Positions 46,937-51,154 of a DNA stretch of 64,000 bases are shown here, in pieces; positions within the stretch are counted from its first letter, which is position 1, and each line of letters begins with the position of its first letter. Source of the DNA: an uncultured Enterobacteriaceae bacterium (lineage in GTDB: Bacteria > Myxococcota_A > UBA9042); NCBI GenBank assembly GCA_964438735.1, contig CAYTLW010000004.1, forward strand, positions 51,953 to 115,952, written 5' to 3'. The notes beneath the pieces were generated by a model. That model saw only the letters and a list, made by a program, of their open reading frames with translations. It did no database searches and was not told the origin of the DNA. The position numbers and the translations under genes are program-made.

Positions 46937-48406
46937 TCAGGGCCCCGAGCAGCAATCCAGGTCGAGGATCTCGCCGTTGGTATAGTCATCGACCCGTAGA
47001 TCCGGCCGCGGTCGGTCGGTCACGGCCTTCAACTCCGACGTACCGTGCACGTCGATGTAGCGTGTCCAGACGCCAGGGCAGAGATTGTCGAAAGCGCAGC
47101 CGTCGCAGGTCTCTTTGGGTTTGACCCGCTCGGGATCGGCCAGGGTGCCGGTGTAGTCGCCCATCAGGTCGTAGTGGTCGATGTAATCCGGCGCCACGCA
47201 GGGCGGCAGGGCGCAGCATTGGGAGCTCTCGACCCGCAGACCGGTCTCGCGGCCCATCTCGAAGGCGCCGACGAAGGGCGTCAGGCACTCGGTGAACGAG
47301 GGCAGCAGCGCGTGATGTGACCAGGCGTGGCCGCGCGGGATGGGATAGCTGAACTGCAGCCGCTCCAGGGCGCCTCCCCACCGATCCCAGCACCAGCGAC
47401 CAAACGCGGGCAGGTGGGCCAGGCTGGGGCGCATGACCACGGCGGTGATCTTGATGCGGAAGCCCATCTTGGCGGCCAGGTCGATGGCGCGCACCTTGCG
47501 GGCGTGTCGTTCGGTGGCGGGGCCTTTTGCGAGCACGGCGCGCGGCGGCAGGGAGGGGCCCTTGCCGTCGATGGAGAAGCGCTGCGCCAGGGGTTTGTCG
47601 GGCACATCCAGCGCGCCCGTCATCATGTCCGAGATGTGTGGATCGGCCGCGTGCAGGGAGAAACCCAGGCCCAGCCGTTCGCGATAGGGCAGGTAGGGCT
47701 CCAGCGCGCCCGGCTCGCCGAAGCGGATGCCATTGGTCTGCACGATGATCTCGTCGGCGCCACGCTCCCAGGCCAGTCTGACGAAGTCGGGCAGGTCCTT
47801 GACCAGGGTCGGCTCGCCGCCGGAGAAGATGACCTGGCTGAGCGAACCGGCCGGCAGGCGCTTGAGGATGTCGCGCAGGGCCGACTTGGAGGTGACCAGG
47901 TTGGCGTTGCCTTCGGTGGCGTTGCAGAACATGCAGTTCTCGTCGCACTGGTCGGTGACCCGGATGTAGAGCTTCTTGCCCGGCGACACCTCCAGGTACT
48001 TCTCCTGCCCCGGCCGGACGAAGTAGCGCGAAAAGAGCTCGTCCACCGACCAGCCGCGCGTGGCGGTGACCGTCTGCAGGCGTTTGCCCACCTCGCGTAG
48101 CAGCGCCTCCATGCGCCGGTCGAAGGCCTCGCCGCGATAGGAGACATTCCACGCATTGGTGCGGAAGAAGGCGGCGCTGTCCTCATCGTGGGGACGAAGC
48201 AGCACGGCAAAGGGCACCGCGTCGCCGTTGACCGTCACGCCCATGCGCAAGTGGTCGCCTTCGTGAGTCCAATCGCTGACCTGGACCACGCCCAGCCGAT
48301 CGCCGGCGCGGATCTCACACGGGGCGCCAAAGTCGTCGAAGAAGCGCTCAAGGCGCGGCACGGCGTCTTTGTCCTTGGGAATTACGGCGTGATCGAACAG
48401 GGCCAT
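46937..48406 (-). CDS. Radical SAM enzyme with SPASM-like C-terminal Cys cluster and ~140-aa N-terminal extension
   Basis: CX3CX2C at CDENCMFCNA and SAM-binding GGEP (IFSGGEPTL). C-terminal Cys pairs (QCCALPPC and CDGCAFDNLCPG). SD AGGAGG 10 nt upstream of the ATG at 48406. Monocistronic. Confidence 0.75.
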   Translation of the reverse strand: MALFDHAVIPKDKDAVPRLERFFDDFGAPCEIRAGDRLGVVQVSDWTHEGDHLRMGVTVNGDAVPFAVLLRPHDEDSAAFFRTNAWNVSYRGEAFDRRMEALLREVGKRLQTVTATRGWSVDELFSRYFVRPGQEKYLEVSPGKKLYIRVTDQCDENCMFCNATEGNANLVTSKSALRDILKRLPAGSLSQVIFSGGEPTLVKDLPDFVRLAWERGADEIIVQTNGIRFGEPGALEPYLPYRERLGLGFSLHAADPHISDMMTGALDVPDKPLAQRFSIDGKGPSLPPRAVLAKGPATERHARKVRAIDLAAKMGFRIKITAVVMRPSLAHLPAFGRWCWDRWGGALERLQFSYPIPRGHAWSHHALLPSFTECLTPFVGAFEMGRETGLRVESSQCCALPPCVAPDYIDHYDLMGDYTGTLADPERVKPKETCDGCAFDNLCPGVWTRYIDVHGTSELKAVTDRPRPDLRVDDYTNGEILDLDCCSGP

Positions 48407-48460
48407 AGGGCCGGCACCTCCTGGCCGATCAGGCTAGCGTGCGCCGGCGATTCTGCCCAG

Positions 48461-48590
48461 TTGTGAATCGCCTGGCACCCTACAAAACGGCGAGTTGTGA
48501 ATCAAAGGCACCCTACAAAACGGCGAGTTGTGAATCAAAGGCACCCTACAAAACGGCGAGTTGTGAATCAAACGCACCCTACAAATCGCA
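48461..48590. repeat. Four tandem copies of a 33-bp AT-rich repeat (TTGTGAATCAAAGGCACCCTACAAAACGGCGAG) in a divergent promoter region
   Basis: Copy 1 is 34 bp with a variant (TCGCCTGG), copies 2-3 are identical, and copy 4 diverges at its 3' end. About 48% GC against about 70% for the window. No spacers, so not CRISPR. Confidence 0.9.
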
Positions 48591-48648
48591 CCTGCATGTC
48601 TTCTTGTCGAATGGCGAGTTGGACCTATTCTAAGTCGCGGAGGCCCGG

Positions 48649-49329
48649 ATGCCGGCTACCCTCGGCCGGCACCTGCAGGGCGCCTGCCAGCTTCTGCTGT
48701 CCGAGTTGTGCGCAATGCAAGACAATCGACCATCGCCACACAACCTGCAGGTCGCGCAGGATCGCCTGGCGCAGCGGCGCGAGCATTCGGGTCTGTGGGC
48801 GCAAGTGCCAGACAGACTCCTCGAGCGCATGATACGGGCGCAGACGGTCCAGTTGATCGCGGCGTCGGTGTTCACATCGGTGCTGCTCGCCGGCGCTCTG
48901 AGCTACTTGTTCGAGTTCCTGGTCTGGGGCGAGGCTCGACACGAAGTGACCGCCCTCGTCTGCGCTGTCGCGCTCTTCGTCTCGGGCTTCGTCGCGTCCT
49001 TGATTATCATCTTCATCCAGAAGATGCGGCGCGATGAACGATCAGCGAAGGAAGCGGAGATGCGCCTGAACGACGAGCTGCGGCAAGCGCTCGCGACGAT
49101 TCGCACGCTTCGCGGCATCATCCCAATCTGCGCCTGGTGCAAGTCGGTGCGCGATGACGAAGGGTATTGGAAGCGCGTCGATACCTATATCTCCGAAAAC
49201 TCGGCGGCGAGCTTCAGTCACGGGATGTGTCCGTGCTGCGAGGAGAAGATGGCGGCCGGTGTCGACGCGATTGCAGCGTCGCCGCCGAGCGAAGACAGCC
49301 CCCTGGGCCGACGGGTCGGCAACGAATAG
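48649..49329 (+). CDS. Small membrane protein with C-terminal Cys-rich zinc-ribbon-like module (putative signalling/sensor protein)
   Basis: SD GGAGG 5 nt before the ATG at 48649. Two TM helices, a coiled-coil (KMRRDERSAKEAEMRLNDELRQALATIRTL), then GIIPICAWCKSVRDDEGYWKRVDTYISENSAASFSHGMCPCCEEK. Confidence 0.65.
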   Translation: MPATLGRHLQGACQLLLSELCAMQDNRPSPHNLQVAQDRLAQRREHSGLWAQVPDRLLERMIRAQTVQLIAASVFTSVLLAGALSYLFEFLVWGEARHEVTALVCAVALFVSGFVASLIIIFIQKMRRDERSAKEAEMRLNDELRQALATIRTLRGIIPICAWCKSVRDDEGYWKRVDTYISENSAASFSHGMCPCCEEKMAAGVDAIAASPPSEDSPLGRRVGNE

Positions 49330-49372
49330 CGAGTTGCGAATCGCAGTTGTGAATCGAAGGCACCCTACAAAT
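49330..49372. repeat. Additional copy (~1.4 units) of the 33-bp repeat downstream of the membrane-protein gene
   Basis: GCGAGTTGCGAATCGCAGTTGTGAATCGAAGGCACCCTACAAA matches the 48461..48590 repeat unit. Confidence 0.8.
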
Positions 49373-49390
49373 GCCCGGGAACGCTCGTTA

Positions 49391-51154
<1,764 letters not shown>

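Follow-up and report, generated by a model that had tools for sequence, protein, structure and literature searches.

Organization of the repeat locus

We analysed a stretch of 64,000 nucleotides (hereafter the window) from contig CAYTLW010000004.1 of GenBank assembly GCA_964438735.1, an uncultured bacterium of the GTDB lineage Myxococcota_A, and in particular a tandem repeat array between two divergently transcribed genes, one for a radical S-adenosylmethionine (radical-SAM) protein and one for a 226-aa predicted membrane protein (Table 1). An earlier reading of the letters alone (the original prediction) had described four tandem units in this divergent promoter region, and both the units and the flanking genes were recovered. 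Tandem Repeats Finder reported a period of 33, 3.8 copies, 94% matches and a score of 217 at 48459-48585. Pattern searches identified a bipartite core, GTTGTGAATC (box A)-N4/5-GCACCCTACAAA (box B), starting at 48460, 48494, 48527 and 48560. The array at 48460-48592 consists of four abutting head-to-tail units of 34, 33, 33 and 33 bp, so that unit 1 is longer than the 33 bp originally given. The units abut directly and there are no unique spacers between the repeats, and a CRISPR array was therefore ruled out.

Unit 2 was identical to unit 3 over its full length, including the linker and the spacer. The divergent 3' spacer of unit 4 marks the end of the array. A fifth core, also predicted 3' of the membrane-protein gene, was found within the 61-bp spacer that separates the convergent 226-aa and amidohydrolase genes, with 1 mismatch in 26 nt relative to the array core. 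A box A half-site, GTTGCGAATC, was present at 49333-49342 and had been absent from the original prediction. Among the five cores, substitutions were confined to the 4-5-nt linker, and the 22 box positions were free of them. In 100 dinucleotide shuffles of the window, no core match occurred. The low GC content claimed for the array was borne out, with 50.4% for 48460-48592 and 48.5% for the consensus unit, compared with 67.9% for the window and 54-74% for other intergenic regions.

Table 1. Features of the repeat locus and related arrays. Positions are those of the window, except in the last row, where they are those of the respective contigs.
Feature	Position	Strand	Description
Radical-SAM gene, 489 aa	46937..48406	-	Divergent from the 226-aa gene; uncharacterised family, marine Myxococcota
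Unit 1 REP-like module	48436..48483	-	GTAG(48483-48480)-G-GTGCC-A-GGCGATTC-[11-nt loop]-GAATCGCC-GGCGC
Unit 1	48460..48493	+	34 bp: GTTGTGAATC-GCCTG-GCACCCTACAAA-ACGGCGA; linker GCCTG
Three weak promoter-like hexamer pairs	48477..48571	-	TTGATT-N17-TAGGGT, one per unit junction, towards the radical-SAM gene
Unit 2	48494..48526	+	33 bp, consensus GTTGTGAATCAAAGGCACCCTACAAAACGGCGA; no hairpin; DNA fold z = +0.63
Unit 3	48527..48559	+	33 bp, same as unit 2; repeat families D17, D20
Unit 4	48560..48592	+	G to C in the core at linker position 14; divergent 3' spacer TCGCACC
Decayed remnant	48601..48631	+	CTTGTCGAAT-GGCGA-GTTGGACC; repeat pieces 48601-48620; overlaps the candidate promoter; read from the sequence
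226-aa gene	48649..49329	+	Enclosed by repeats; two predicted N-terminal transmembrane helices; C-terminal Cys/His motif
Box-A-like remnants	49320..49342	+	GCAACGAATA-GCGA-GTTGCGAATC; extend over the final codons of the 226-aa gene and its TAG stop (49327-49329)
Solo fifth core	49346..49371	+	GTTGTGAATC-GAAG-GCACCCTACAAA; family D20, 96% identity
Amidohydrolase gene	starts 49391	-	Convergent with the 226-aa gene
REP-like family loci L043-L069	e.g. L046 13542-13924, L069 13-504, L058 1393-1513, L064 1323-1400, L048 9330-9510		Tandem arrays in metagenome contigs

Hairpin, RNA structure and coding potential

Every copy of the core reads TTTGTAGGGTGC on the minus strand, which is a GTAG tag followed by GGTGC, and TTTGTAGGG was found on the minus strand in all five cores. 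Unit 1 forms a bulged 13-bp stem-loop with the arms GTGCGCC+GGCGATTC and GAATCGCC+GGCAC, and this stem-loop directly abuts CTAC. In plus-strand coordinates, the inner arms are at 48446-48453 and 48465-48472 and the outer arms at 48439-48445 and 48474-48478. Read on the minus strand, unit 1 shows GTAG and then the palindrome. The DNA fold of unit 1 had a free energy of -14.0 kcal/mol (z = -1.96), and 9 of 200 shuffles were as stable. The inner stem was also present in the RNA minimum free energy and centroid structures. The internal units folded worse than their shuffles, with z from +0.6 to +1.95. The units can alternatively be phased as CGGCGA / GTTGTGAATC / linker / GCACCCTACAAAA, and in this phasing unit 1 is longer and reads CGGCGA-TTCTGCCCA-GTTGTGAATC-GCCT-GGCACCCTACAAAA. 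Relative to unit 1, units 2-4 lack nine bases of the arm and loop and carry AAA in place of GCCT, and these changes destroy the hairpin.

RNA folds of the array showed no excess of structure on either strand (z = +0.73 and +0.35), and an Rfam search of 47900-49900 at E <= 10 returned noise only, with no relevant match. Open frames on both strands had been pointed out, and three frames were indeed open through the array (plus frame 0, most of plus frame 1, and minus frame 0). The array was also predicted to be non-coding from its rare codons, and the codon scores agreed with this: all six frames scored from -0.33 to -1.07 bits per codon with 43-58% GC at third codon positions (GC3), whereas neighbouring genes of at least 170 aa scored from +0.25 to +0.69 bits per codon with a GC3 of 80-92%. 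The translated repeat, with the three frames joined, had no match among 5.8 billion proteins. The array is non-coding and is not a structured RNA.

Similarity to GTAG-tagged palindromic repeats

A tandem scan with box B was run on metagenome contigs, and a tandem scan with box A, run on a collection of species genomes, served as the control. Box B occurred in tandem at 27 metagenome loci, all belonging to one coherent family of 31-36-bp head-to-tail units in which TTTGTAGGGTGC is the conserved core. The box A control returned 18 heterogeneous and mutually unrelated matches. From this control, we roughly estimate that a 12-mer hits about one locus by chance, and that the chance of its meeting one abundant coherent family is about 0.04. 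The hairpin arms of the family covary (GGTGCGC/GCGCACC, GGTGCCC/GGGCACC, GGTGCGT/ACGCACC and GGTGCGCC/GGCGCACC) and are followed by an invariant CTACAAA. A cyanobacterial unit of this family, which resembles repetitive extragenic palindromic (REP) sequences, folded with z = -4.3. The arrays are intergenic, mostly just 3' of open reading frames (ORFs), with several per contig and occasional inverted partners. They reach at least 15 units and match no Rfam family. Most of the 27 loci are rich in the HIP1 octamer GCGATCGC, which is over-represented in cyanobacterial genomes, and are likely cyanobacterial, and several have a GC content of 58-65%. In one contig with 65% GC, an unrelated tandem repeat of about 60 bp, CTTGCTTCGAGATCCACTTTCTTTGCTTCGAGGAAGCAACGG..., adjoins the REP-like array on the minus strand (L064, 1150-1320), in a further intergenic stretch rich in repeats.

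The anatomy of the metagenome family matches that published for GTAG-tagged REPs and their tandem clusters (PMC3733652, PMC3116915). Such REPs are thought to be mobilised by REP-associated tyrosine transposases (RAYT, or TnpA-REP) (PMC3733652, PMC3116915, PMC8266576), and TnpA-REP processing needs a palindrome preceded by a conserved motif (PMC8266576). Like the GTAG-tagged REPs (Di Nocera et al. 2013, PMC3733652; Bertels & Rainey 2011, PMC3116915; Corneloup et al. 2021, PMC8266576), the array carries the tag and GGTGC in every copy, and in unit 1 the tag is followed by the bulged 13-bp stem-loop. The array units are likewise short (33 bp), intergenic and head-to-tail, and the solo copy is located just 3' of an ORF between convergent genes. 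In contrast to these REPs, the array lacks the palindrome in three of its four units, as does the solo copy; no dispersal was found within the 64 kb, no RAYT gene was seen, and the main array is located between divergent genes. In addition, the metagenome family has no counterpart of box A (GTTGTGAATC). The original prediction had held that the array was not any described element. This claim has to be qualified, as box B includes the GTAG tag and first stem bases of a widespread REP-like family and unit 1 retains the tag with its stem-loop. The REP link of the array is suggestive, not proven.

Distribution, orthologous loci and copy number

The possibility that the repeat might mark a regulon found no support in the window, which has no further site. 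Further copies of the repeat were not found in the window even with mismatches allowed, and the repeat was not found in the approximately 85 kb fetched from related marine Myxococcota. The exact two-box core was looked for in 185,579 species genomes, in 241 million metagenome contigs and in IMG/VR, without a match; these collections evidently lack the source contigs, so that the zero says nothing of the source genome itself. Neither the array nor the cyanobacterial unit had a blastn match among the PLSDB plasmids. Searches for the motif strings in the literature returned primer coincidences only, and the motif was not in the supplements of PMC3733652.

Synteny was followed in nine look-ups with the window's own proteins and the radical-SAM orthologues. 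About 45 radical-SAM orthologues were found, all from uncultured marine Myxococcota or Deltaproteobacteria, and homologues were labelled as metagenome-assembled genomes of Myxococcales or Deltaproteobacteria. The closest orthologue (L020) is 77% identical, and more distant ones (L021-L024 and L071-L073) are found in other gene contexts. Upstream of the orthologues examined (48-77% identity), the sequence differs greatly and contains neither the repeat nor box A or box B, so that the repeat is not a conserved part of the promoter. For the 226-aa gene, no full-length orthologue exists, and hence there is no orthologous locus to compare.

The window lies within a metagenome contig of 171 kb from JGI (Ga0115649_1000130), and contigs near-identical to it were found in several JGI, ENA and Logan assemblies. 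All long population contigs carry four units, and one 4.1-kb ENA contig (L018) carries three, by a clean in-register 33-bp deletion in an otherwise identical sequence. This three-unit form may be a true length allele, or the assembly may have collapsed. Logan contigs, which are de Bruijn assemblies, break inside the array, including the contig of a 99%-identical variant (P0001).

Origin of the array

We favour, with a probability of about 0.5, the reading that the array is a locus-specific and possibly length-variable minisatellite, probably REP-derived, in which a truncated REP-like module was amplified beside one intact module. We infer both the REP ancestry and the origin by slippage. The building block most likely descended from a GTAG-tagged REP-like palindromic element, and unit 1, with the tag and the bulged 13-bp stem-loop, would be the surviving intact module. 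Units 2-4 would be in-register copies in which 9 nt of the 5' arm and loop were lost and the 3' arm was mutated, and they were most likely amplified head-to-tail via replication slippage or unequal recombination. Since decayed pieces and the solo core are found on both sides of the 226-aa gene, this gene sits inside one old repeat field. In formal terms it is flanked by parts of a unit, with ...CTACAAA (48585) before it and GCGA... (49330) after it. It may have been inserted at this point, or it may have arrived with the repeats. Regulatory effects of the array, if any, are likely a secondary by-product and not a conserved design. The two divergent promoters could be affected through spacing, through the TTGATT-N17-TAGGGT pairs, or through protein binding to the boxes.

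Several observations weigh against a REP-derived minisatellite. A stem-loop of about 5-13 bp directly beside the tag, the feature that defines REPs, was absent from units 2-4 and from the solo copy (DNA fold z from 0.0 to +1.95). The link of box B to the metagenome family is an identity of 12-14 nt that was selected for. Outside the 12-mer, the similarity to the closest high-GC member (L048) was not above chance, as 15-20% of shuffles and 23% of window segments scored equally. REPs are normally dispersed in many copies, and here a single locus is known. No GTAG-palindrome family was found in the window or the approximately 85 kb from relatives, and no RAYT-like gene was found in the same DNA, a RAYT probe sequence giving no significant tblastn hit in the window. 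Between divergent genes, where the four-unit array sits, REPs are least common (PMC3733652). The three-unit contig may be an assembly collapse, as mentioned above. Finally, the restriction of variation to the linker, with the boxes perfectly kept, could reflect selection for protein binding, which would favour an operator. Unit 1 also seemed to share GGCG..ATTCTG with the L048 unit, but this likeness did not survive comparison with shuffles.

A dedicated operator or upstream activating sequence (UAS) array, as originally proposed, is tentative and appreciably less probable than the REP-derived minisatellite. Here a regulator would bind GTTGTGAATC-N4-GCACCCTACAAA cooperatively at four direct repeats and the downstream site and would control the 226-aa gene, the radical-SAM gene, or both. 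The boxes are invariant in five copies and three independent substitutions all fall in the 4-nt linker, for which we estimate (4/26)^3, or about 0.004, if mutation were uniform. This invariance fits sequence-specific recognition by some protein. The array is AT-rich within a GC-rich genome and unusually unstructured, and a plausible promoter of the 226-aa gene has its -35 hexamer 11-150 bp downstream of the array. As in operator/UAS arrays and plasmid iterons, identical direct repeats with two invariant boxes are regularly spaced in a promoter region. Unlike in those systems, no cognate regulator or Rep gene adjoins the array, no regulon is apparent, with no other site within the 64 kb, and the repeat is missing upstream of every radical-SAM orthologue examined. 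No transcription-factor gene was found nearby and no helix-turn-helix-type gene within 10 kb on either side of the array, and a comparison by eye with sigma-54, CRP/FNR, Fur and LysR-type consensus sequences gave nothing convincing. The 226-aa gene has no full-length orthologue that could show conservation of the repeat. No promoter is expected at the downstream copy, which lies between the ends of two convergent genes. The full identity of units 2 and 3, including linker and spacer, points to recent amplification and not to long-term selection on the boxes. It had also been claimed that all copies would lie on the same face of the DNA. This was only approximately so, because the unit is about three turns but the 33-bp period corresponds to 3.14 turns of 10.5-bp B-DNA, an offset of about 50 degrees per copy, and is thus not an exact multiple of the helical repeat. 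Nothing shows the repeats to be a transcription-factor operator array.

A plain slippage minisatellite, that is, a variable-number tandem repeat (VNTR) without REP ancestry or function in which the box B match is a coincidence, is rated slightly below the operator array. In its favour, all the DNA sampled contained the repeat at this locus only, unit 3 repeats unit 2 exactly, one contig differs in length by 33 bp in register, and REP-family similarity beyond the 12-mer was not significant. Minisatellites such as the mycobacterial interspersed repetitive units (MIRUs) likewise consist of intergenic head-to-tail units tens of bp long, and the apparent difference of three and four units between population contigs and the related copy nearby are further likenesses to MIRU-type VNTRs. 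MIRUs, however, are present at dozens of sites in each genome, often overlapping the ends of genes with small ORFs, and the repeat here is known from one locus. A coincidence accords poorly with all 27 of the 27 box B loci belonging to one tag-plus-hairpin family while the box A control was scattered, and with the stem-loop of unit 1 exactly abutting the tag. Furthermore, the non-adjacent copy 786 bp away and the decayed pieces need more than simple slippage.

It is doubtful, and less probable than either of the two preceding accounts, that a hairpin-less REP-derived array was co-opted as a direct-repeat protein-binding platform coupling the expression of the 226-aa and radical-SAM genes. Such a platform would act on the DNA, or on the mRNA if the array were the 5' untranslated region and the solo copy the 3' untranslated region of the 226-aa transcript, and gain or loss of units (three or four) would tune expression as in a contingency locus.

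It is very improbable that the minus-strand ORF 48577-48434 (47 aa, LIHNSPFCRVP three times) encodes a precursor of a ribosomally synthesised and post-translationally modified peptide that is the substrate of the radical-SAM enzyme: the ORF is an open frame, co-directional and 27 bp upstream of the radical-SAM gene in a layout like that of a precursor with its maturase, it has one Cys per repeat, and among NCBIfam models the enzyme comes closest to the peptide-maturase-type HxsC4 and HxsC, far below the cut-offs, but the ORF has a codon score of -0.60, a GC3 of 57% and the rare codons ATT, TTT, TGT, AGG and CCT (4-16% within synonymous families), it has a GTG start and no convincing Shine-Dalgarno sequence, no homologous peptide was found among the 5.8 billion proteins, the orthologues inspected (of about 45) have no upstream peptide gene and instead follow a MoxR-DUF58-BatA-VWA operon, and the 26-nt core recurs in the non-coding spacer between convergent genes.

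Flanking genes and candidate promoters

A strict scan for promoters and terminators found none. A relaxed scan gave a candidate sigma-70-like promoter for the 226-aa gene, which the stricter scan missed, with TTGTCG at 48604-48609, a 16-nt spacer and TATTCT at 48626-48631 (8 of 12 matches); this promoter is predicted. A GGAGG sequence is located 5 nt before the ATG of the 226-aa gene. Each of the TTGATT-N17-TAGGGT pairs has 7 of 12 matches, a resemblance to the consensus only, with a background of 0.11 sites per kb per strand.

The 226-aa gene had a codon score of +0.25 and a GC3 of 0.80. Its GC content was the lowest and its codon score the second lowest of 15 genes, yet both are within the native range, and recent horizontal transfer was rejected. 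The N-terminal part of the 226-aa protein has no homologues, and the C-terminal Cys/His domain is conserved (C161, C164, H191, C194 and C197). A DNA-binding role was also rejected, since no DNA-binding fold was detected (no PDB match by sequence, and no Foldseek PDB match of an AF2 model with a pLDDT of 77). Residues ~154-204 (window 49108-49260) contain the motif IPICAWCK..RDD.G.W......Y.......A.F.HG.CP.C, in which L154, P159, I160, C161, C164, K165, W174, Y180, H191, C194 and C197 were invariant across 50 sequences. Over 100 proteins, drawn from many phyla, carry the module at the C-terminus, following REC, PAS, GAF, HAMP, DUF4118 and Cache domains. Neither Pfam nor NCBIfam has a model for the Cys/His domain, and the PDB contains no relative at the level of sequence or fold. 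The domain looks like an uncharacterised Zn-binding signalling output domain.

The radical-SAM gene adjoins the repeat, with no demonstrable functional link between them. Members of this radical-SAM family are usually the last gene of the MoxR-DUF58-BatA-VWA operon, with uvrB convergent (L021-L024, L071 and L072). In the window, in the closest orthologue (L020) and in L073, the gene has been relocated away from this operon. The usual context hints at a role of the enzyme in connection with the Bat/MoxR system and not in peptide maturation.

Other repeats in the window

A dispersed element, GGGTCAGGYATTGACACYTGACAYCTT, was found in three copies in the window, at 24887-24915 (plus strand), 31571-31545 (minus strand) and 31507-31479 (minus strand). 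It contains the 7-bp inverted repeat GTCAGGT..ACCTGAC and no GTAG tag, and each copy is located at an ORF's 3' end or shortly before the following gene. The element could be a REP-like or operator-like motif of the source genome.

Long coding repeats, namely a 117-bp unit in five copies and 264-bp modules, were found at 55609-56190, about 59400-63000, 53676-54673 and 27400-28150. They are rich in Cys codons (CxxC..C), the very large secreted-type proteins in which they are located have weak matches to Dicty_CTDC and MopE, and modules similar to them are present on both strands of the window. Two in-frame repeats of short period, (GCCGCCCAT)n in 8.7 copies and a GTGTCC-based array with a period of 12-48 bp, were found at 25190-25304 and 37401-37572. 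The GTGTCC-based array is located just upstream of the start, or in the N-terminus, of a gene for a 1580-aa Ser/Thr kinase that begins near 37825 on the minus strand.

Significance

The most suitable annotation for the locus is that of a non-coding repeat region rather than a gene, a small RNA or a proven operator. Intergenic tandem and REP-derived repeats are an already known kind of element, there is nothing here to surprise a specialist, and the importance of the array beyond annotation is small. If the boxes truly bind a regulator, they would provide a first handle on the uncharacterised Cys/His output domain. The cross-phylum family that shares TTTGTAGGGTGC and has covarying stems could help to define the recognition code of one RAYT lineage. 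The array itself may be an example of a tagged palindromic repeat that has decayed into a minisatellite without hairpins and that, incidentally, supplies promoter-like hexamers.

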